Under the pieces are notes generated by a model. It was given only the letters and a program-made list of their open reading frames with translations. It was not told the DNA's origin and did no database searches. Of a stretch of 64,000 nucleotides of DNA, positions 7,747 through 38,409 are shown piece after piece (within the stretch, counting starts at the first letter, position 1; every line of letters starts with the position of its first letter). This DNA is from Candidatus Dadabacteria bacterium (GTDB lineage Bacteria; Desulfobacterota_D; UBA1144; Nemesobacterales; Nemesobacteraceae). A program made the translations under genes and the position numbers. The stretch covers positions 117,254-181,253 of the forward strand of contig JAJECI010000008.1 in assembly GCA_022822065.1 (NCBI GenBank). The letters are read 5' to 3'.

Positions 7747-9507
7747 GTGGCTACCGATACTTCTGCTTCGCGATCAGGCGTTCGCTACGAACCTAACGAC
7801 AAGCCGCCGACGCTACTCGTAGCCGGGCTAGGCTTACAGCTAGCCATTCTCACCATAGCGGGGATCGCCATCACGCCGGTCATCGTGATCAAGGCCGCCG
7901 GCGAATCCGAGACTTACATGTTGTGGGCGGTATTCGCGTCAGTCGTGATTAGCGGGGTCAGCACTATACTGCAGGCCGTCAGAGTTGGTCGAATCGGCGC
8001 AGGATACGTTCTCCTGATGGGCACCTCCGGCGCATTCATCGCAATCTGCATCACCGCGATCGCGAAAGGCGGACCCGCCATGTTGGCGACGCTCGTCATT
8101 ATCTCGTCTTTGTTCCAATTTGCCCTGGCGAGACGCCTTTCCCTGTTTCGGCGGATACTCACCCCCACGGTCGCGGGCACGGTAATCATGCTGATTTCCG
8201 TCACCGTGATGCCGATAATTTTCGATCTCCTGGACAAGGTTAAGGACACCGCAGACCCTCAGGCCGCTCCCCTCAGCGCGCTTGTGACCGTGCTTGTCAT
8301 TACAGCCATCGCCATCAAGGGTACCGGCGTATTCCGACTTTGGGCTCCCGTAGCGGGCATCATCGCAGGGTGTATTGTTGGCGGCTTCTTCGGAATTTAT
8401 GACACGACGCGCATTTCCGAATCCGCCTGGATCGGGTTTCCGCAAGGAGGCTGGCCCGGCTTTGATCTGAGTTTCGGACCGACGTTCTGGACGCTCCTGC
8501 CCGGGTTCATCTTTGTCACCATGATTGGCGCGATCGAGACAATTGGCGACGCCGTGGCAATTCAGCGCATTTCGTGGCGACGGCCGCGAGCCGTAGACTT
8601 TCGCTCCGTTCAGGGAGCCGTGACTGCCGACGGGGTGGGTAACCTACTGTCCGGGCTCGCCGGCACAGTTCCAAACACGACGTACTCGTCCAGCGTATCG
8701 GTAACGGAACTTACCGGAGTGGGGGCTCGGGGAATCGGAATTGCCGCGGGCACCATATTTATCATCTTGGCATGCTTCCCCAAGGCGCTCAGCGCAATTC
8801 TCGCGATTCCGAATCCGGTGGCCGCGGGGTACCTGGCCATCCTGGTGGCTATACTGTTTGTGGTTGGAATGAAGGTTGTCGTCCAAGACGGAATCGACTA
8901 CCGCAAGGGCATGATTGCGGGAGTTTCATTCTGGGTGGGTGTCGGCTTTCAGCACGGCGCAATCTTCCCTGAGTATTTCGCGGAATTTGCCGGCGGCCTG
9001 CTGCAGAACGGCATGACGGCAGGCGGTCTCACCGCCCTGCTCCTTACGCTTTTTGTCGAAGTCACTGAACCTCGGCGCAGACGCATAAATCTTCCGTTTC
9101 ACATTACGACATTGCCGAAAATCCGGGAGTTTCTGCAATCGTTTGCTTCCCACAGCGGCTGGGGGGAGGCGATGGCCAACCGCCTTGACGCCGCCAGTGA
9201 AGAAACCCTGCTCACGCTGCTTGAGCGAAAAACGACGTCAGGCGAGGAAGAACCTTCACGGCGATTGCACATTATTGCGCACAAGGAAGGCGACGAGGCC
9301 GTGCTTGAATTCATAGCGTCAGCCACCGAAGAAAATCTCCAAGACCGGATCGCGCTGCTAGGCGAGCGAGCGTCGGAAGCCTCGACTGAACAAGAGGTGT
9401 CTCTGCGACTGTTGCGACACATCGCCTCGTCGGTACAACATCAGCAATATCACGACACGGATATCCTCACTATCCGCGTGAAGGCACCGGCTCCTACGTC
9501 CGATTGA
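7747..9507 (+). CDS. NCS2 (xanthine/uracil permease)-family transporter with a ~150-aa C-terminal cytoplasmic extension
   Basis: Polytopic protein. The GLGLQLAILTIAG block corresponds to the NCS2 GLQHvLvmyaG motif, here with Leu in place of His. The following VISGVSTILQA block is also NCS2-like. The hydrophilic tail (aa ~440-586) has no recognisable motif. Confidence 0.6.
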   Translation: MATDTSASRSGVRYEPNDKPPTLLVAGLGLQLAILTIAGIAITPVIVIKAAGESETYMLWAVFASVVISGVSTILQAVRVGRIGAGYVLLMGTSGAFIAICITAIAKGGPAMLATLVIISSLFQFALARRLSLFRRILTPTVAGTVIMLISVTVMPIIFDLLDKVKDTADPQAAPLSALVTVLVITAIAIKGTGVFRLWAPVAGIIAGCIVGGFFGIYDTTRISESAWIGFPQGGWPGFDLSFGPTFWTLLPGFIFVTMIGAIETIGDAVAIQRISWRRPRAVDFRSVQGAVTADGVGNLLSGLAGTVPNTTYSSSVSVTELTGVGARGIGIAAGTIFIILACFPKALSAILAIPNPVAAGYLAILVAILFVVGMKVVVQDGIDYRKGMIAGVSFWVGVGFQHGAIFPEYFAEFAGGLLQNGMTAGGLTALLLTLFVEVTEPRRRRINLPFHITTLPKIREFLQSFASHSGWGEAMANRLDAASEETLLTLLERKTTSGEEEPSRRLHIIAHKEGDEAVLEFIASATEENLQDRIALLGERASEASTEQEVSLRLLRHIASSVQHQQYHDTDILTIRVKAPAPTSD

Positions 9508-15788: not shown

Positions 15789-15973
15789 GTTGCCTGTACA
15801 GACAACATTCTATGCTAATTCACTAAAACAAAATAAAATTTAGCTCGATGAACATGTATAAAGCGTAGCTTGTTTCTGTCAACATTATAATAGAAACTGC
15901 AGATTTTCTCAAGCGTTTTTTACCGTTGGTCTTAAAAAATAGGGCTGAGAGAGAAAAAGAATTCGACGAAGTT

Positions 15974-16969
15974 ATGAGAAAGGATACTGAAATAGCGAAA
16001 AAACGAATCCTATGTATTGACGGAGGGGGAGTCCTCGGCACTTTTCCTGCAGCATTTCTCGCTGAACTGGAAAAACACCTTGATCACCCTATTGGAAAGT
16101 ATTTCGACCTAATTGCGGGAAGTTCCACAGGAGGAATTATTGCACTTGGTCTCAGCATGGGAATTTCCGCATCGCAACTGTTGAATTTCTACGAAAACAG
16201 AAGTTATGAGGTATTTGGTAAAAATAATAGACCGTTTCTGAGTTTTTTCCTCAGAAAAATCCGAGCAGTTAAATGGTGCTTTCTAAGAAAGTATAACTCT
16301 GAACCTCTCCGAACTGTTCTTTATGATGTGTTTGGGGAAAAACGTATAGGTGAAGCGAAAACCCGGTTACTTATTCCAGCTTGGAATCCGGTGGCTAATT
16401 CCGTCTACATCTATAAAACAGCACATCATCCCCGTCTAAAAACAGATTATAAATCAAGCGCGGTTGATGTAGCTATGGCGACATCAGCAGCTCCTTCCTA
16501 TTTCAAGCAACACGTTACACAGCATGGTGTTGTCCTCATTGACGGCGGCATATGGGCAAACAACCCCGTAGCGATTGCTGTTGTTGAGGCCATCTCCCTG
16601 CTGAACTGGCCAAGAGAGTCACTTCGCATCTTAAGCCTAGGGTGTCTGCAGGAGGCATACAATATACCAAAACACGCTGGCCTCGGAATGCTTAACTCAA
16701 AAATTATTAACTTATTCATGGACGGACAGTCTCAAGGGGCTATGGGTATCGCAAAGCTGTTAACGGGTCATGAACACGAACGTACCGCTATATACAGGGT
16801 GAATCAGACGGTTCCATATAATACCTACAAAATGGACGACACAAAGACCATACAAGACTTAAAAGGACTCGGCCATTCCGAGGGGCGAAGTTGGCAACCC
16901 AACCTTGAGGCTATATTTTTCGACAAACCGGCAGAAGTTTTCAAACCATATTATAAGTTGGAGGATTAA
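15974..16969 (+). CDS. patatin-like phospholipase (CBASS effector, CapV/CapE-like)
   Basis: Oxyanion-hole motif ILCIDGGGVLG, nucleophile motif GSSTGG (GxSxG) and catalytic DGG in IDGGIWANNP. Start is taken at ATG 15974. The ORF track starts at an in-frame TTG at 15926, which is less likely. Confidence 0.85.
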   Translation: MRKDTEIAKKRILCIDGGGVLGTFPAAFLAELEKHLDHPIGKYFDLIAGSSTGGIIALGLSMGISASQLLNFYENRSYEVFGKNNRPFLSFFLRKIRAVKWCFLRKYNSEPLRTVLYDVFGEKRIGEAKTRLLIPAWNPVANSVYIYKTAHHPRLKTDYKSSAVDVAMATSAAPSYFKQHVTQHGVVLIDGGIWANNPVAIAVVEAISLLNWPRESLRILSLGCLQEAYNIPKHAGLGMLNSKIINLFMDGQSQGAMGIAKLLTGHEHERTAIYRVNQTVPYNTYKMDDTKTIQDLKGLGHSEGRSWQPNLEAIFFDKPAEVFKPYYKLED

Positions 16970-16971
16970 GA

Positions 16972-18171
16972 ATGAGAATTGATGAAGCTAGATATTCTAA
17001 CTTTTTAGACGAAGTTGCAGGAAACCTAGATATTTCCCCGAGCAAGTACAGAGATGCTGTCGACCGCTACCAAGCTGTTGCGAAATGGCTCGAAGGCGGA
17101 GATTACCCCGGACCTTCTGATTCTGGGTTAGACATCTATCCACAAGGCTCATTTCGTTTAGGTACAGTCACGAGACCAATAAGGAACAGTATTGAAGCAG
17201 ATTATGACATTGATCTTGTGTGCGAAGTCCCCTTGCTAAAAGAGTGGGCCAAGCCTGAGTACGTAAAGCAGTTAGTCGGCGACAGACTAAAAGAACACGA
17301 CATGTATAGGAGAATGCTAGATGAAGAAGGTAGGCGATGCTGGACGCTAATATATTCTGAGCAAGACAATATTGGCTTCCACCTGGATGTTCTGCCGTCA
17401 GTCCCCTATTTGGGAGGCTACCTAAACACGGCGATTGCGATAACGGACAAAGATCTTTCCCTTTACAGGTGGTCAATAAGCGATCCTAAGGGTTACGCTC
17501 AATGGTTTGATGATAGAAACATGTCCGCATTTAACCTGGTATCTGCTGAACAGAAGAGACTTATTCAAAATCAAGCCCCGGAAATATACGCAAGAATCGA
17601 AGACGTACCTAATCAATTAGTTCGTACTCCCCTTCAACGTGCAATTCAAATTATGAAACGTCACCGTGACATTAAGTTCAATGACACAAGATCTATTGAG
17701 TATGCCCCGATTTCAATAATCATTACGACTCTCTCCGCATATTTCTATCGAAACGAACCAGATGTCTACTCCGCTCTGAAGAATATTGTAGGTAGTTTAA
17801 ATGCACATTCTGCCCTATTTGAAAATCGGGTTCTTGATCCTGCTCTCAAATCAATTACTCCCATAAAAAGGACCTCTGATGGCAAATGGCATATAGGCAA
17901 TCCTGTTAATCCAGAGGAAAACTTTGCAGACAGGTGGCATGAGAATAACCATGCCAGAGCAAAAGCATTCTTTCAGTGGTTGGACTCTCTACAAAAAGAC
18001 CTTATTAACATACTTAATGAAAACAATCGAGACCTAGCAAAAAGCACCCTTATCTCAGCCCTAGGCAGTGTCCCAGTATCGCAAAATCTGGAACTGATAA
18101 TCCCTCCTAAAGTAATCGAAAGCCCCCCGAAGATTCATATTTCTAGGCCAGCGCAACCGTGGAAAGACTAG
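16972..18171 (+). CDS. cGAS/DncV-like nucleotidyltransferase (CD-NTase, SMODS domain) of CBASS
   Basis: Pol-beta-type NTase motif QGSFRLGT...DYDIDLV (GS...[DE]h[DE]h), with a third acidic residue in GFHLDVLPS. GGAGG Shine-Dalgarno 7 nt upstream. It lies between a patatin effector and an E2-like gene and is translationally coupled to the next gene (TAG-a-ATG). Confidence 0.8.
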   Translation: MRIDEARYSNFLDEVAGNLDISPSKYRDAVDRYQAVAKWLEGGDYPGPSDSGLDIYPQGSFRLGTVTRPIRNSIEADYDIDLVCEVPLLKEWAKPEYVKQLVGDRLKEHDMYRRMLDEEGRRCWTLIYSEQDNIGFHLDVLPSVPYLGGYLNTAIAITDKDLSLYRWSISDPKGYAQWFDDRNMSAFNLVSAEQKRLIQNQAPEIYARIEDVPNQLVRTPLQRAIQIMKRHRDIKFNDTRSIEYAPISIIITTLSAYFYRNEPDVYSALKNIVGSLNAHSALFENRVLDPALKSITPIKRTSDGKWHIGNPVNPEENFADRWHENNHARAKAFFQWLDSLQKDLINILNENNRDLAKSTLISALGSVPVSQNLELIIPPKVIESPPKIHISRPAQPWKD

Positions 18172-18172
18172 A

Positions 18173-18901
18173 ATGAAAGGCAAAATCAGAAAAGAGATTT
18201 GCGAGTTGAAGCAAACTTACAAATGCCTCACAGACATATCTCATCGAAAACAGGAAACAATAATAAAAGGCCCCCTTTCATTTGAAGCGTCTTTTGACGA
18301 GTTCCCGGTGATTGTTGAGTGCTTTGATATTGAACTAGCTATTCCTGACTCTTACCCAGAAGTCCTTCCAATTGTACGAGAAACAGGTGGAAGAATCGAC
18401 CAAGATTATGAACACCTGAATCAGGATGGAACCCTTTGTCTTACTACACCGATTGAGAAACGCCTGCTTTTTCTAGAGCAAAAATCTTTACTCGGATTCG
18501 TAAATCTTCTTGTTATCCCATATTTATATGGTTACTCCTACTGGAAAAAGTATGGTCATCACCCTTTTGGTGAGCGTGCACACGGAGTTGAGGGAATTAT
18601 TCAGTACTATCAGGATGAGTTAGGTTTAAGCGGTAATGTACATATACTAGCAATGCTCGCTTTTCTTTTCCAGTTCGGTTATCGTGGCCATCTTCTCTGT
18701 CCCTGCGGAAGCGGATTTAAAGTTCGGGAATGTCACAGCGAAACTTTATTAAAGCTTCATAAATATCACTCTAATCACACCTTAAGAAATGATTTCTTAT
18801 ATCTACTTTCTCTTTGCTTAGAAAAAAAAGAAGAGTTCTCTGAAGAGCTTTCAAAACAGATAGATCGAATACTAAAAAAAGAAAAATTAAGAAAAAAGTA
18901 A
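18173..18901 (+). CDS. Cap2-like E2 (UBC-fold) protein without E1 or JAB partner, with a C-terminal SEC-C-type zinc-binding motif
   Basis: IELAIPDSYPEVLPIVRE resembles the E2 block (FP.DYPFKPPKV.F). HLNQDGTLCLTTP resembles the HPN-x(n)-G-ICL active-site Cys region. LLCPCGSGFKVRECH is a SEC-C-like CPCGSG.K...CH metal knuckle. Confidence 0.65.
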   Translation: MKGKIRKEICELKQTYKCLTDISHRKQETIIKGPLSFEASFDEFPVIVECFDIELAIPDSYPEVLPIVRETGGRIDQDYEHLNQDGTLCLTTPIEKRLLFLEQKSLLGFVNLLVIPYLYGYSYWKKYGHHPFGERAHGVEGIIQYYQDELGLSGNVHILAMLAFLFQFGYRGHLLCPCGSGFKVRECHSETLLKLHKYHSNHTLRNDFLYLLSLCLEKKEEFSEELSKQIDRILKKEKLRKK

Positions 18902-21125: not shown

Positions 21126-22022
21126 TCAGGAAGCCGGAAGCCTGTACTTCTTCCAGTATCTTATAAGGCCGCCAGCGTTCATGTGGTAAGGGGCCATAAG
21201 ATCATACTTTTTATAGACCTCTTCGTTTACGCCCTCACGCTCGAATATCTCGCTGAAGTAGGCACCGAACTCCTCGGTTATCTCTTCGTCGCTCTTTCCG
21301 GCCGATACTCTCTCGCCGATCCACTCAGACCACTCTTCGAGTTCTTCGGCAGCGGAGTCAAGCATGGGACCCACATCCGTGTACCCGCCGAAATGGGTTA
21401 GATAAATTATGTCGGGGGATATCTCCCTCATCTTGTCAATGGAAGCGTTCCACTTCTCAAGGTGTATCTCGGGAGGAGGAGTCGCGGGAATCATGGGACC
21501 GCCCGCCATCACACACCCCGCCGTATCCCCGGTAAAAAGCGCATTCTCGATCAGGTAGCAGTGATGATGCCCGGCATGTCCGGCGGTCTCTACGACCCTT
21601 ATCTCAACGCCTCCTATGTTGATTCTCTGGCCGTCCTCAATGGCAACCACGCGGTCTTTATCTATTCCCCCGACCTCGCCCCAGAGGCGTTTCATGCTGT
21701 CCTCCCCGTATATCCTCGTCGCGGATTTCATAAGTTTTTCCGGCTCTATGAGGTGCGGAGCTCCCACCGGGTGAACGTATATCGTCGAACCCGTCTCGGC
21801 GAGACGCCAGGCGCCTCCGGAATGATCGAGGTGGATATGGGTTACGAACACATGTTTTACGTCAGAGAGGGCGTATCCCAGATCTGAAAGCCCGCTTTTG
21901 AGATTCTCGAACACGGTCTCGGGACCCGTCTCTATAAGTATCGGCCCCTCGCCGGTTTCGATAACGTAAGAGGCTATCGTTTCAGTCATAAAGAAATTAA
22001 GGTCAATGATCTTCAAGTCCAT
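21126..22022 (-). CDS. MBL-fold metallo-hydrolase
   Basis: Metallo-beta-lactamase motif VTHIHLDHSGG (HxHxDH), with downstream His and Asp ligands. Size is 298 aa. Confidence 0.8.
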   Translation of the reverse strand: MDLKIIDLNFFMTETIASYVIETGEGPILIETGPETVFENLKSGLSDLGYALSDVKHVFVTHIHLDHSGGAWRLAETGSTIYVHPVGAPHLIEPEKLMKSATRIYGEDSMKRLWGEVGGIDKDRVVAIEDGQRINIGGVEIRVVETAGHAGHHHCYLIENALFTGDTAGCVMAGGPMIPATPPPEIHLEKWNASIDKMREISPDIIYLTHFGGYTDVGPMLDSAAEELEEWSEWIGERVSAGKSDEEITEEFGAYFSEIFEREGVNEEVYKKYDLMAPYHMNAGGLIRYWKKYRLPAS

Positions 22023-31338: not shown

Positions 31339-32055
31339 ATGATACCGATTAGAAGCACAATAAAAACCGAAATCGTCCCCTATGTGAATTACGCGCTTCT
31401 CGCCGCAAACTTGGCGGTTTTCGCGTATACCCTTTCTCTGACGGGGGGGACGCTTGAGATGTTCTACCAGACACACGGTATTGTGCCCAGCAAGATAACC
31501 GCCCTTGAAGCCTACGGATTCCTTGGCAGAACGGCAAAATATTTCAGTTCCATGTTCATCCATGAAAACTGGCTTCACCTGGCCGGGAACCTGGTTTTTC
31601 TCTACATATTCGGAAACGCTATCGAGGACCTGCTGGGGCACGCCAGATACCTGCTTTTCTACCTCGTGTGCGGACTGGTAGCCGTATTCATCCATGTGGC
31701 CTTAAACTCCCACTCCGCAATTCCGGTAATAGGAGCAAGCGGGGCGGTCTCCGGAGTCCTGGGCGCGTATATGCTCTTTTTCCCAAGATCAAGGATCCTT
31801 ACGCTCCTCATAGTTCTGGTGTTTGTCTACTTCGTGCGCATAAGGGCTTATCTTTTCATAATTTTCTGGTTTAGCGTTCAGTTTCTGACCGGAATCGGCT
31901 ATATTGGTGACGCGGGAACCGAGGGCCTGTGGGCGCACATGTCGGGATTCGCCTGCGGAGCCATAGCCGGAGGGGGATTTCTTTACACGCGGGGATGGCG
32001 AAGTAAAAAATACAAATCCGGTTACGGACCGGGGTGGTACGGACAAAATGACTAG
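31339..32055 (+). CDS. rhomboid-family intramembrane serine protease
   Basis: Six-TM core with the catalytic Ser motif GASGAVSG and the catalytic His in AHMSGF. Size is 238 aa. Confidence 0.8.
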   Translation: MIPIRSTIKTEIVPYVNYALLAANLAVFAYTLSLTGGTLEMFYQTHGIVPSKITALEAYGFLGRTAKYFSSMFIHENWLHLAGNLVFLYIFGNAIEDLLGHARYLLFYLVCGLVAVFIHVALNSHSAIPVIGASGAVSGVLGAYMLFFPRSRILTLLIVLVFVYFVRIRAYLFIIFWFSVQFLTGIGYIGDAGTEGLWAHMSGFACGAIAGGGFLYTRGWRSKKYKSGYGPGWYGQND

Positions 32056-33379: not shown

Positions 33380-35074
33380 TCAGTCCTTTATGTGATGTTT
33401 TTCGTGAACCGGTTTTATCAGAAGATTGCTTATCAAAGCGATTATTAATAACGCCGCCATCACATACATCGTCGAGTTGTACAGGGAAGCCGTCGGGTCT
33501 ACCGTCCCCTCGGGCGCGATATCCATGAGCTTCGCGAGCGTTACGGTCTTATTCTGCACGAGTATCTCGAGATCGTTAATTCCGGCTCCGAAAGTCTTAG
33601 TGAATTCATGCGGCGATACCTTTTCGGCGAGGTGGCGGATTTCGGCCATAAGCGAACGGTCTCTAAGCGAGGTGACCGCCAAGGGACCGAGCACGCCGGC
33701 GACGCTCCAAGCGGTCAGCAAACGTCCATAGATGCCGCCTACGTAACGGGTACCAAACAGGTCGGCAAGATATGCCGGGACGGTGGCGAAGACGCCCCCG
33801 TAGAAAGTAAAGATTATCATCGTCGCCGCATAGAACATTAACAGCCAGAGGATCGAAGGATTAAGATTCACTTGGTGGGCGGCCACAGGAATGGACAAAT
33901 ACAGCAAAAGACCGACCGCGCAAAATATCGAACACGTATTGCGTCGCCCCAGCTTATCGGAGGCGCTCGCCCACATAATGCGCCCCAGCATGTTGAACAT
34001 GCCGATCATAAAGACGTAAGTGGCGGCAAAGGTGACGTCAACAATACCCGGGAGCGTGTTGCTGAATATCTCGGTCATCATTGTCTTGGCGACAGAGATA
34101 ATCCCGATGCCGGCCGTAACGTTAAGGCACAGCACGACCCACACCTGGTAGAACTGAGGCGTTCTCAGCGCCTGATCCATATGCACATCTTTCTGACTGA
34201 TCATCCGCCTGCCAGAATCCTCGCCGGCCGGCGGCTCCCATCCTCGCGGTTTATACTCCGGAACCGGGACACGATACAGAAACGCCGAGACCATTATCAC
34301 AAGGAAATAAACCACTCCGAAGAGAAGAAAGGTCTGGGCGACCCCCGCGGAACCGGTGCCAACCACGTACACCCCGGCCGCTTCGGTTCCGGGCGCCAGC
34401 ACATGTGCCGCCTCGGCAGCCCCCGCGACAACAACCTCTTTTAGCTGACCGCCGACTTCAACAAAGCGTCGGCCCGAACGAGTGATCATATCGACGGCAT
34501 CAACCGTCCCCAGGTATTGAGGCGCCTTGTAGAAGTACTGGAGGAGAAATTCCTTGAGCGGCACCGCGATCATCGCCCCACCGCCGAAGCCCATGATCGC
34601 CATTCCGGCAGCCAGGCCGCGTCGGTCCGGAAACCAGCGAATTAAGTTGCTGACCGGAGATACATAACCAAAACCCAGACCGATACCGCCGATTACGCCG
34701 TAACCCAGATAAATCAGCCACAGCTGATGCAGAGTAACACCGAGGCTGCTGAGCATGTAGCCCCCACCCCAGAAACACGCTGCCATCACGCCGACCATGC
34801 GTGGTCCCACCTTCTCAACCCATTTGCCGGCAAACGCCGCCGTAAGCCCGGTGAACGCGATAGCGACGCTGAATATCCACACCACCTGGCGCAGAGTCCA
34901 GTCGTCCGCCGCGCTAGTGGCGACGCCAAGCACCTCAATTAACGCGGGATTATATATGCTCCAGGCGTAAACGGAACCAATGCACAGGTGAACCGCAACA
35001 GACGGAGGTACAACCAGCCAGCGGTTGAATTCCGGACCTCTAACGATACGTTCCTTTGATAAAAGACTCGCCAT
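33380..35074 (-). CDS. MFS transporter, oxalate:formate antiporter (OFA)-like family
   Basis: 12-TM MFS topology with a long central loop. Start is moved to MASLLSKER (35074) so the gene does not overlap tRNA-Thr. Confidence 0.7.
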   Translation of the reverse strand: MASLLSKERIVRGPEFNRWLVVPPSVAVHLCIGSVYAWSIYNPALIEVLGVATSAADDWTLRQVVWIFSVAIAFTGLTAAFAGKWVEKVGPRMVGVMAACFWGGGYMLSSLGVTLHQLWLIYLGYGVIGGIGLGFGYVSPVSNLIRWFPDRRGLAAGMAIMGFGGGAMIAVPLKEFLLQYFYKAPQYLGTVDAVDMITRSGRRFVEVGGQLKEVVVAGAAEAAHVLAPGTEAAGVYVVGTGSAGVAQTFLLFGVVYFLVIMVSAFLYRVPVPEYKPRGWEPPAGEDSGRRMISQKDVHMDQALRTPQFYQVWVVLCLNVTAGIGIISVAKTMMTEIFSNTLPGIVDVTFAATYVFMIGMFNMLGRIMWASASDKLGRRNTCSIFCAVGLLLYLSIPVAAHQVNLNPSILWLLMFYAATMIIFTFYGGVFATVPAYLADLFGTRYVGGIYGRLLTAWSVAGVLGPLAVTSLRDRSLMAEIRHLAEKVSPHEFTKTFGAGINDLEILVQNKTVTLAKLMDIAPEGTVDPTASLYNSTMYVMAALLIIALISNLLIKPVHEKHHIKD

Positions 35075-35122
35075 TGGCTGTATCACGCGGTTAGTCGCCG
35101 AGGGGGAACTGAAGTTACATAC

Positions 35123-35194
35123 AGCCGACGAGGGGATTCGAACCCCTGACCTGCTCATTACGAGTGAGCTGCTCTACCACTGAGCTACATCGGC
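35123..35194 (-). tRNA. tRNA-Thr (anticodon CGT)
   Basis: Reverse-complement cloverleaf. Acceptor gccgatg/cgtcggc, D-arm gctc-agtggt-agagc, anticodon stem gctca/tgagc with loop ctCGTaa, T-arm agggg-ttcgaat-cccct. Confidence 0.85.
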
Positions 35195-35370: not shown

Positions 35371-36822
35371 ATGAAATTCAGGATACACGAAATGTTATTG
35401 AGTCTGTTTTTTATACTGGCGTTTTGTTTTTCGTTCAGCACTGAAGCGTCGGCCCATGAGTACACCGATTCCGACGGAAACGTTTATACACACAGTGAAG
35501 ACATCAACATAAGCGCGGCGGACGTCGACCCTACAAATGAAGCTCAAATGAAGAAGTTCGTCCGTCATCTGGCCAAGCATACGGACCTCATTAATAGCCA
35601 GGACAAGCTCAACGAAACGAAACTGGAGAAATCAAGGGAGATCGTAATATTCGGAAGACGAGCCAGGGAAAGAGCCGGAGAAGGAGAAACCCCTAACGTC
35701 CTCAATCACGGTGATGTCTATAGAATCCTGACCTTAAACTTAATAGATGCTGTAGGGAATCACGGGCTGTATCCAGATCTCTACGGCCGCAAATATGATT
35801 CTTCCCAAGATCCGCTGAAAACTTTACTCGGCGATGACGTCCCCGAATTCTCGGACACCGTTGTTCCGCTGTGCAAAAGGTATGGCGAAGAGAACAGGGT
35901 GGCCTGCGCGGTCAGACAAGAGATCCCCGCGGGGCCGGTAACGACCATGGCGGGCTTTCATCACGCGGAAGACGATCCCGTTGTGCTAGCTCCCGACTGT
36001 TCTGATTTCATTCCTCCGGTTACGGCCGAAGAGGTCGAGAACGAAACAGATCTCGATAAGAAGAGAGAACTTCTTAGACAGTACGTAAAAGGCGTTATTA
36101 AGATCACCAATAAGATATTTGTAGATGCGGCGAAGATGTTTTTTGCAGATACGGGGGCGGAAGCACCCCTGACAGAACTACAACTAATAAGAAGACTACA
36201 AGCAGAAGCTGGTGCAAGGTTCTTCCCAAAAGCGCCTTGTTTTAGGTCACCTGATTTACGTCACGGTTCCATATACTCTTTCATTATGGACCCGATACGT
36301 GGAGTTTCATTTATGAACCCGAACGATCATAACCTAAACGGTCTAAGCGTTTCGCTAAATGACCCGGACCCGGTTCCGTATGACGATCAAGGGAATATTG
36401 AACCAAATGTCCTGGTCGCTTTTCAGAGGGTACTGACAAACACTCCACCACCAGATCCCCCCAACCCGAATAGCATAAAACATGGAGACTCAGGCTTCGT
36501 CACATATCACTGGGCCCATCCCACAAAAACAGAGCTTAACATCCCTGACTATCTCGACCGCGACGTGGTTCCCGGCAGAGCGATCAAGGAAAGCTATATC
36601 GAGGTAGCGGACCTATTCGATGGCGCTGATCCTCCGCCGCTTCCGTTGCCTGTCCCCTTCGTGTTTGGTTCCGGATTCTACCCGCCAGAAATGATGGCGG
36701 AAGAAGGCGATGACGGGTGTTCCATCGCCGCAACCGGCAATACGTCTCAAAGCGCTTTGCTTAATCTTTTCCTGATAGCATCCGTTTTATTCTCAGCCGT
36801 TATCCTGAAAAAGCGCGTTTAG
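35371..36822 (+). CDS. secreted acidic protein, family member 1, with a C-terminal Cys-containing sorting-like tail
   Basis: Signal peptide MKFRIHEMLLSLFFILAFCFSFSTEASA|HE with an AGGAG Shine-Dalgarno. C-terminus GDDGCSIAATGNTSQSALLNLFLIASVLFSAVILKKRV, which is motif, then TM helix, then basic residues. Closely paralogous to 37012..38409. Confidence 0.6.
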   Translation: MKFRIHEMLLSLFFILAFCFSFSTEASAHEYTDSDGNVYTHSEDINISAADVDPTNEAQMKKFVRHLAKHTDLINSQDKLNETKLEKSREIVIFGRRARERAGEGETPNVLNHGDVYRILTLNLIDAVGNHGLYPDLYGRKYDSSQDPLKTLLGDDVPEFSDTVVPLCKRYGEENRVACAVRQEIPAGPVTTMAGFHHAEDDPVVLAPDCSDFIPPVTAEEVENETDLDKKRELLRQYVKGVIKITNKIFVDAAKMFFADTGAEAPLTELQLIRRLQAEAGARFFPKAPCFRSPDLRHGSIYSFIMDPIRGVSFMNPNDHNLNGLSVSLNDPDPVPYDDQGNIEPNVLVAFQRVLTNTPPPDPPNPNSIKHGDSGFVTYHWAHPTKTELNIPDYLDRDVVPGRAIKESYIEVADLFDGADPPPLPLPVPFVFGSGFYPPEMMAEEGDDGCSIAATGNTSQSALLNLFLIASVLFSAVILKKRV

Positions 36823-37188
36823 GCGGAGGAAAATATTTTTTCGCGACTAATCCAGAGAGGAAAGGTTTGAGTAATTCTATTCACCCGAGCCGTATGGAGC
36901 TTTCACAGCCTGCGATGTTCGGTTGACGTCGGTAATCCTGTCAACCTAGAAAAATAATGTAGCAAGTAACTAGTTATAGGGGTAATTACCAAATATTGGA
37001 GGTAATATCAGGTGAAGTTCAGAGCACATGGAATGTTGTTGAGTTTGTTTTTTATGCTGGCGTTTTGTTTTTAGTTAAGCACTGAATCGTCGGCCCAAGA
37101 GTACACCGATTCCGACGGAAATATTTATACACACAGTGAAGACATCAACATAAGCGCGGCGGACGTCGATCCTGCGGATGAAGCTCAA

Positions 37189-38409
37189 ATGAAAAAATTC
37201 GTCCGTCATCTGGCCAAGCATATAGACCTCATTATTAACCAGGACAAGCTCGACGAAGCGAAACTGGAGAGATCAAGGGAGGTCATAATATTTGAAGGAC
37301 AAGCCAGAGAAAGAGCCGGAGAAGGGGAAGACCCTAATGTGCTCAATCACGGAGATGTTTACACTACAACCACTCTTAACCTTAACAGGGGGGTTATAAC
37401 GAATCACGGGCTGTATCCAGATCTCTACGGCCGCAAATATGATTCTTCCCAAGATCCGCTGAAAACTTTGCTCGGCGATAACGTCCCCGAATTCTCGGAC
37501 AACGTTGATCCGCAGTGCGTAACGTATGACAACGGAAACAGGGTGGCCTGCTCAGTCAGACAACTGATCCCCGCGGGGCCGATAACAACCATGGCGGGTT
37601 TTCATCACGCGGAAGACGATCCTGTTGTGCAAACCCCCGACTGTTCTGATTTCACTTCTCCGGTTACGGCCGAAGAGGTCGAGAACGAGACAGATCTCGA
37701 TATGAAAAGAGAACTTCTTAAACAATTCGTAAAAGGCATTGCCGAGATCACTAGAAAGGTATTTTTAGCTACGGCGTTGGAAGTGGCATCCAGCGTACCC
37801 CCAGAGGATGTAATACCAGCATCCGTTGCAAGGGTATACGAAGAAGTGCCTTGCTTTAGGTCACCTGGGTTACGTTCTGACTCCATATATTCTTTCGTCA
37901 TGGATCCGATACGTGGAGTTGGGTTCCTGAACGCGAACGATTTTACCCTTAACGGTCTAAGCGTTTCGTTAAATGACCCGGACCCGATCCCGTATGATGA
38001 TCAAGGAAATATTGAACCAAATGTCCTGGTTGCTTTTCAGAGGGCACTGACAAATACTCCGCCACCAGATCCCCCCAACCTGGATAGCATAAAAAATGGG
38101 GACTCCGGCTTCGTCAGATATCATTGGGACGACCCAAGAACTGAAGAGGATAACGTCGAGGGCTTTTTGGCAAAGGGCGTGGTTCCCGGCAGGTCGGTCA
38201 AGGAAAGCTACATTGAGGTAGTGAATTTGGTCGAGGGTCTTCCGTCCCCGCCTGTCCTCTTCGTGTTTGGTTCCGGATTCTATCCGGAAGAAGGCGATGA
38301 CGGGTGTTCCATCGCCGCGACCGGCAATGCGTCTCAAAGCGCTTTGCTTAATCTGTTTCTGATAGCATCCGTTTTATTCTCGGCCGTTTTCCTGAGAAAG
38401 CGCGTTTAG
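37189..38409 (+). CDS. secreted acidic protein, family member 2 (tandem paralogue); the upstream signal-peptide region 37012-37188 is in frame but interrupted by TAG at 37072-37074, so this is a probable pseudogene or phase-off allele
   Basis: Roughly 75-80% identical to the 35371 gene over its length. Same C-terminal tail (GDDGCSIAATGNASQSALLNLFLIASVLFSAVFLRKRV). GTG start at 37012 with a GGAGG Shine-Dalgarno. Codon 21 is TAG where the paralogue has TCG. Confidence 0.5.
   Translation: MKKFVRHLAKHIDLIINQDKLDEAKLERSREVIIFEGQARERAGEGEDPNVLNHGDVYTTTTLNLNRGVITNHGLYPDLYGRKYDSSQDPLKTLLGDNVPEFSDNVDPQCVTYDNGNRVACSVRQLIPAGPITTMAGFHHAEDDPVVQTPDCSDFTSPVTAEEVENETDLDMKRELLKQFVKGIAEITRKVFLATALEVASSVPPEDVIPASVARVYEEVPCFRSPGLRSDSIYSFVMDPIRGVGFLNANDFTLNGLSVSLNDPDPIPYDDQGNIEPNVLVAFQRALTNTPPPDPPNLDSIKNGDSGFVRYHWDDPRTEEDNVEGFLAKGVVPGRSVKESYIEVVNLVEGLPSPPVLFVFGSGFYPEEGDDGCSIAATGNASQSALLNLFLIASVLFSAVFLRKRV

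Follow-up and report, generated by a model that had tools for sequence, protein, structure and literature searches.

We analyzed a 64,000-nucleotide (nt) stretch of DNA from the genome of a sponge-associated Candidatus Dadabacteria bacterium (assembly GCA_022822065.1, contig JAJECI010000008.1, positions 117,254 to 181,253 of the forward strand); this whole stretch is the window, and coordinates refer to it. Our subject is a tandem pair of genes for predicted exported proteins, copy 1 and copy 2, and an amber codon that interrupts copy 2 in the window record. The situation is an ordinary one, that is, a functional tandem paralogue has a premature stop in a single assembly, and this stop is either brand new or not real.

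35371 to 36822, plus strand: copy 1, an intact open reading frame (ORF) from ATG that encodes 483 residues, identical to P0001
36823 to 37011, plus strand: spacer between the copies, 189 nt, with GGAGG at 36998 to 37002, 9 nt 5′ of the GTG of copy 2
37012 to 38409, plus strand: copy 2, with a GTG start and, in the window record, TAG at codon 21; its intact counterpart is P0125

The copy 1 protein (P0001) is present both at NCBI, in a 285,399-bp contig, and at ENA. The frame of copy 2, from the GTG at 37012 to the stop at 38409, contains 466 codons and a single internal stop, the TAG at 37072–37074 (codon 21); as described in an initial annotation of this DNA, the gene downstream of the TAG stays in frame. 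The ribosome-binding sites described there are also present, that is, AGGAG located 10 nt 5′ of the copy 1 ATG and GGAGG before the copy 2 GTG. The two genes are true paralogues that can be aligned across their 5′ leaders and 3′ flanks (approximately 30 and 45 nt, respectively); they share 82.4% nucleotide identity over 1392 aligned coding positions, so the earlier estimate of 75–80% was slightly low, and 74.4% amino acid identity. The similarity (blastn) is 86–87% over the 5′ 780 nt and 81% over the 3′ 636 nt. The copies differ by four in-frame indel blocks; an example of a peptide region specific to copy 2 is TTTTLNLNRGVITNHG.

Start codon of copy 2 and age of the duplication

The start regions of the two genes (…CAGGATGAAA in copy 1 vs …CAGG-TGAAG in copy 2) align with the 1-nt difference that had been reported and that converts ATG to GTG. 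The same GTG, together with TCG at codon 21, is found in three other assemblies (loci L001, L002, and L003), in which the gene is intact or is disrupted only elsewhere; in this species, then, copy 2 natively starts at GTG, and the codon is no lesion. In more distant relatives the start codon at this position is ATG, so a 1-nt loss did take place in the past and has been fixed and tolerated.

When copy 2 of the window is compared with that of L002, the synonymous divergence (dS) is 0.086 and the nonsynonymous divergence (dN) is 0.014, giving a ratio (omega) of 0.16; using the intact allele of L001, omega is 0.13. These values show that copy 2 evolved under purifying selection. Between copy 1 and copy 2 dS is 0.34, and in clustering, copy 1 pairs first with its orthologue P0002 (84% identity) and only then with copy 2; the duplication is thus not recent and is older than the split from the P0002 lineage.

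On the view of the initial annotation, copy 2 is a degrading pseudogene in which, after a recent duplication, loss of the ATG was followed by the gain of a stop. Taken alone, the window record, with GTG in place of ATG and TAG at codon 21, invites this view. However, strains whose copy 2 is intact have the GTG too, L001–L003 lack the TAG, the copy 2 orthologues are constrained (omega of 0.13–0.16), no further lesion is found in the other 1394 nt of the gene, and the duplication preceded the P0002-lineage split. Neither the loss of the ATG as damage nor the recent duplication survives this comparison, and we consider a decaying pseudogene very improbable.

The amber codon in copy 2

Positions 9470–62249 of the window are also covered, via loci L041, L001, and L043, by an ENA contig (KELL22-1_SAMN22237337_METAG-scaffold_47) from an independent assembly of sample SAMN22237337. 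The two sequences are identical over 52.8 kb except at four positions, all within the signal-peptide coding region of copy 2 or directly beside it.

37073 to 37098, plus strand: private cluster of four transversions, the sole mismatches to ENA scaffold_47 across window 9470 to 62249
37073, C>A (A here, C in scaffold_47): S21 to stop (TCG to TAG)
37077, C>A (A here, C in scaffold_47): F22L
37087, G>T (T here, G in scaffold_47): A27S
37098, T>A (A here, T in scaffold_47): H31Q
37189 to 38409, plus strand: residual ORF after the TAG, 406 residues from the first in-frame ATG, without a signal peptide; NCBI gene call P0126

In scaffold_47, copy 2 is an intact gene of 465 residues with the same GTG (P0125); L002 and L003, from approximately 98% identical strains in sample ERZ26693581, have TCG/TTC/GCG/CAT at the four positions. 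The TAG that had been reported at codon 21, where copy 1 has TCG, is confirmed, but the base that differs is 37073 instead of 37072. At NCBI, the gene call for copy 2 (P0126) is the 406-residue remnant, so the TAG is truly in the deposited record; an exact look-up of the remnant in a contig index gave no match, though the protein is present as P0126.

All four changes are transversions, all are nonsynonymous, and three belong to the class G:C>T:A; because the remaining 1394 nt of copy 2 contain no difference from scaffold_47, the gene is free of secondary decay. The probability of four independent hits so near to one another is approximately (26/52780)^3, roughly 1e-10, so the four changes are one event or one artifact. 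The TAG is, then, a single very recent event or an artifact and not an evolved switch, in a gene that is not otherwise decaying.

We lean, if only slightly, toward the reading that copies 1 and 2 are an established functional tandem pair and that the TAG is a very young loss-of-function allele that exists beside an intact allele in the symbiont population. One local mutational event would have altered four bases within 26 nt of the signal-peptide coding region, with the conversion of Ser21 (TCG) to amber (TAG) among the changes, and translation from the GTG would yield only 20 residues. Downstream there is a single in-frame start, ATG 37189 (codon 60); it lacks an obvious Shine-Dalgarno sequence, and its product would have no signal peptide, so the TAG allele would be null for the exported copy 2 protein. 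Of the inactivation that the initial annotation proposed, this much holds: in this record the amber codon leaves copy 2 unable to make a product with a signal peptide. The codon is absent from L001, L002, and L003.

How the contigs were assembled bears on whether the four changes are real. Judged from the SPIRE-style study code KELL22-1, the likely source study is that of Kelly et al. (2022; PMC9531527), in which the Illumina reads of each specimen were assembled with MEGAHIT. In a de Bruijn assembly all of the k-mers in a contig should occur in the reads and the deeper branch of a bubble should be kept, and this would favor a real allele. Our assessment is that the four changes are somewhat more apt to be present in the DNA than to be a consensus error.

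Several observations weigh against a young allele. The spectrum of the changes (only transversions, only nonsynonymous, three of them G:C>T:A) also fits damage or error artifacts, and the independent SAMN22237337 assembly has the intact gene. The TAG haplotype occurs in no second record: a degenerate 39–42-nt pattern spanning both haplotypes gave 0 matches in scans of GTDB genomes and JGI metagenomes. Logan contigs from run SRR16351678 match the window at 100% identity throughout the overlaps, but they end at 31-mer repeats before the site; the nearest (L046) ends at window position 38289, hence they provide no read-proxy evidence for the TAG. Finally, the evidence on the site comes from assembled contigs.

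The same observations can be explained by an assembly or consensus artifact, that is, the DNA of the population would carry TCG/TTC/GCG/CAT and copy 2 would be a normal, intact gene of 465 residues. G:C>T:A is the class of change caused by oxidative damage, and three of the four changes belong to it; the four differences stand alone in 52.8 kb, all inside 26 nt; the ENA assembly and the two related strains are intact at these positions; and the haplotype has been seen nowhere else. However, de Bruijn assemblers retain only k-mers that recur in the reads, so a haplotype with four errors would probably have reached the consensus only where local depth was very low or where damaged fragments had been duplicated. 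In addition, one strand shows both C>A and G>T, unlike the products of a single damaged strand. The opposite error is also conceivable, that is, the ENA contig could have merged a ‘bubble’ between the paralogues at small k; a stretch of this contig is identical to copy 1 over 65 nt, and the variant block is flanked by 24 and 23 nt that are shared with copy 1. We regard the artifact as an appreciable possibility.

Clustered changes would also result if a third paralogue, diverged or already defective and located elsewhere in the genome, had donated a short patch by gene conversion. The family is multi-copy, with at least three loci in single genomes (e.g., OY763921.1), and its copies appear to recombine, as in L049, where a single hybrid gene has the 5′ end of copy 1 and the body of copy 2. 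However, neither the rest of the window nor any of 49 fetched loci contains a k-mer of at least 13 nt over a variant position, the residues L22, S27, and Q31 occur in no homologue seen, and the donor would itself have to carry the stop; we consider such a patch very improbable. The hybrid gene (L049 5001–6570, ERZ26693581 ctg249919_2x_l) replaces the pair in a co-occurring strain; its upstream region and signal peptide are copy-1-like, its body is copy-2-like, and the crossover is located in the shared 5′ stretch, so that it represents either unequal recombination of the tandem copies or a chimera in a contig with 2x coverage. Templating by a quasi-palindrome was rejected as a source of the four changes; the variant allele folds no better than the ancestral allele (−17.5 vs −18.2 kcal/mol).

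The initial annotation had also suggested a reversible ON/OFF switch, and a related possibility is programmed read-through or recoding of the TAG. Phase variation is common for surface-exposed proteins of host-associated bacteria; here the early stop is located in the signal peptide of such a protein, and an intact allele and a stop allele both exist. The site, however, has no tandem or simple-sequence repeat, homopolymer slippage site, or invertible repeat, no inverted repeats surround the promoter or 5′ end, and the alleles differ by four substitutions, not by length. A diversity-generating retroelement was rejected: no reverse transcriptase is annotated in window 9470–62249 (precomputed Pfam annotation), and the changes in the derived copy are toward A, opposite to the action of such an element on its target. 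Recoding and pyrrolysine incorporation were likewise rejected; TAG is an ordinary stop that terminates 15 of the 45 long ORFs in the window (both copies included), and the same annotation contains no pyrrolysine genes. A switch or recoding is, in our view, extremely improbable.

For annotation, neither an old pseudogene nor a switch is an appropriate label for copy 2; the 406-residue NCBI call is the remnant of a 465-residue gene that is intact in a second assembly from the same population. For screening, stop codons found in a single metagenome-assembled genome (MAG) need read-level support before they are interpreted biologically.

Protein architecture, family, and genome context

Both proteins are predicted to be exported by a Sec-type route with cleavage of the signal peptide, as suggested by their N-terminal sequences; the putative cleavage site was placed by the AXA rule from the sequence.

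35371 to 35454, plus strand: copy 1 signal peptide, residues 1 to 28, MKFRIHEMLLSLFFILAFCFSFSTEASA; N-terminal K/R, hydrophobic core, and A-S-A before the predicted cleavage site
residues about 57 to 195: N-terminal alpha/beta module; invariant H41, Y117, H131, C168, C179, and H198
residues 228 to 292: two long helices
residues 296 to 440 (36256 to 36690, plus strand): sCache_2-like beta-sheet module
residues about 441 to 446: acidic linker
residues 447 to 483 (36709 to 36819, plus strand): copy 1 C-terminal tail, DDGCSIAATGNTSQSALLNLFLIASVLFSAVILKKRV; Cys motif, hydrophobic helix, and basic end
38296 to 38406, plus strand: copy 2 C-terminal tail, DDGCSIAATGNASQSALLNLFLIASVLFSAVFLRKRV

As described initially, the mature proteins are acidic (isoelectric points of 4.9 and 4.5) and have conserved cysteines: four in the ectodomain are invariant across 106 homologues, and a fifth is located in the tail. 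The statement that they have no recognizable domain holds for domain models, that is, Pfam and NCBIfam scans of both copies found nothing above threshold, but not for structure. In the AlphaFold2 model (pLDDT 88.3, pTM 0.83) the protein is Cache/PAS-like, with a PAS-like alpha/beta fold and a long N-terminal helix that match solved Cache sensor domains; dCache chemoreceptor and kinase sensors rank later among the structural matches of the model. Sub-threshold matches to dCache_2 (PF08269; 11.6–17.3 bits vs a cutoff of 26.5) were obtained for 6 of the 12 members scanned. A profile search of PDB sequences gave no match, and Foldseek against the PDB gave no significant match. The invariant residues of the Cache-like module (Y302, F304, Y379, W381, P401, G402, K406, Y409, and G433-S434-G435-x-Y437) reproduce the usual sCache_2 sequence pattern. 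Once exported, the proteins would expose the N-terminal alpha/beta module and the sCache_2-like module, which may bind a small-molecule ligand, outside the cytoplasm, and they would be held or further processed via the Cys-containing tail.

The tail has the consensus D-G-C-[SA]-I-A...T-x-Q-S-x-LLNLFLIASVLFSVVFLRKR-stop, in which the Cys is nearly invariant and is followed by a hydrophobic helix and a basic end. Across the 106 homologues D447, C450, I452, and A453 are at least 90% conserved and are followed by LLNLFLIASVLFSxVFLRKR-stop; the mean pairwise identity is 71% in the tail, 62% in the signal peptide, and 33–48% in the ectodomain. The same tail ends unrelated EhuB/SBP_bac_3-like proteins in L034 (8019–8132), L035, and L038, so two types of body have been seen with it. 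A phmmer scan with the tail retrieved the Cache-like family only, and a word-index search with the 40-residue tail gave no match. These features are consistent with a tail that acts as a sorting or anchoring signal. The signal peptide, MKFRIHGMLLSLFFALxFCFSFSxEASAH (35371–35454 and 37012–37095), is also conserved above the mature domains; this conservation may stem from a step of export or recognition that is dedicated to the family, or from recombination among the paralogues.

The named homologues are all from Candidatus Dadabacteria or Thermodesulfobacteriota MAGs, except L023 (uncultured Spirochaetia), and the family is multi-copy and often tandem (L015–L017, L019–L021, L027, and L047). In more distant relatives (proteins P0129, P0131, P0134, and P0130 of the representative library; 502–891 residues), a single ORF encodes a fusion of two tandem copies; the signal-peptide-like helix of the second copy follows without a break on the tail helix and basic cluster of the first, an arrangement that would give a topologically consistent membrane protein with two ectodomains. 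Several homologues in other MAGs are split by frameshifts (L003 4308–7399, L028, L030, and L032; e.g., a 436-residue copy 1 and a copy 2 of 289 + 169 residues in a 12x contig), and the break in P0128 (contig L049) follows a C-rich stretch that codes for PPPDPP; the split homologues are probably low-coverage assembly errors rather than biology. A recurrent N-terminal truncation of second copies was considered and rejected: for P0016 it is a gene-calling artifact (the full ORF starts from the ATG at L047:4821), and for P0015 it results from a 1-nt frameshift in a Logan contig.

In the window, an MFS transporter gene (33380–35158, minus strand) is divergent from the pair and matches the NCBIfam model for the L-lactate transporter SfMCT (326 bits vs a cutoff of 320); tRNA-Thr(CGU) is located between them (35123–35194). 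Solved sCache_2 domains bind small carboxylates, and the divergent lactate-type gene hints at a small-carboxylate theme; this is a weak lead because the linkage to the MFS gene is not conserved in other genomes. Functional linkage to the neighbors in general (rhomboid, PFK, lactate-type MFS, and haem genes) was rejected, as these genes are not conserved beside distant homologues. At other loci of the family the neighbors include bioA/bioB/bioF-like genes, an aldehyde dehydrogenase, an enoyl-CoA hydratase-type gene, prs, L25, and pth.

Elsewhere in the window (15926–18901 and 21126–22022), there is a likely module of the CBASS anti-phage type, with a patatin phospholipase, a SMODS/DncV-like nucleotidyltransferase (weak Pfam matches), and a third gene that is small; a metallo-beta-lactamase-fold gene at a distance of a few kb has a Pfam match to Anti-Pycsar_Apyc1. 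Both calls are based on precomputed Pfam labels only.

Comparison with known systems

The copy 2 allele resembles null alleles that arise by nonsense mutation in the paralogous surface-protein genes of host-associated bacteria, in that one member of a tandem pair has a single premature 5′ stop and its sister is intact. It differs in two respects, that is, the stop is accompanied by three more substitutions within 26 nt, and it is missing from an otherwise identical assembly.

The proteins share with sCache_2/Cache sensors (e.g., Adeh_3718, PDB 4k08; the Vibrio parahaemolyticus methyl-accepting chemotaxis protein (MCP), 4exo; and Helicobacter pylori TlpB, 3ub6) the predicted fold, in which a PAS-like sheet of five strands comes after long N-terminal helices, and the pattern Y-x-F ... 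G-F-V-x-Y-x-W-x-x-P ... K-x-S-Y ... G-S-G-x-Y; the signal peptide read from the sequence suggests that their location may likewise be extracytoplasmic. They differ from these sensors in that they match no Pfam Cache model at threshold, have an extra N-terminal alpha/beta module and four invariant cysteines, and are not joined to a chemoreceptor, kinase, or cyclase. No cytoplasmic signaling module (MCP, kinase, or GGDEF) is present in the protein, which ends (KKRV) directly after its C-terminal helix, and the neighbors are not conserved signaling genes; with approximately five residues past a single C-terminal helix, transmembrane signaling by the protein itself is not possible. As modeled, the window proteins are orphan anchored binding proteins, not transmembrane sensors.

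The tail, in turn, resembles the Cys-type tripartite sorting signals, the architecture of which was described by Haft (10.1101/2023.06.07.544157). As in the MYXO-CTERM/JDVT-CTERM class, it is located at the extreme C-terminus, it proceeds from a Cys motif (D-G-C-[SA]-I-A) to a hydrophobic helix and a basic cluster, and it is more conserved than the body and common to proteins with unrelated bodies. In contrast to known members, the window proteins match no NCBIfam CTERM model (the highest score, 15.9 bits for JDVT-CTERM vs a cutoff of 27, was obtained with the SBP-like protein of L034), and the Asp-Pro motif of the JDVT helix is missing. Candidate processing enzymes were sought nearby: the rhomboid at 31339–32055 is no rhombosortase, as it scores 20 bits against the model TIGR03902 (cutoff 84), and no rhomboid is found within 8 kb of the homologues in 37 other loci. 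No CPBP-family intramembrane protease is present in the Pfam lists of window 9470–62249 or beside the L034 gene, and the search for a cognate enzyme needs whole genomes. We tentatively suggest that the tail may be an undescribed Cys-type tripartite sorting signal that, with the conserved signal peptide, could mark a lineage-specific, Dadabacteria-type system for display of Cache-like and SBP-like ligand-binding proteins on the cell envelope via a dedicated processing enzyme; in that case, the amber allele could represent a knock-out, natural in origin, of one of the displayed receptors that segregates in the sponge-symbiont population. Modestly, orphan C-terminally anchored proteins with a Cache fold and a possible new sorting tail may provide a handle on how uncultured sponge symbionts sense or capture small molecules.

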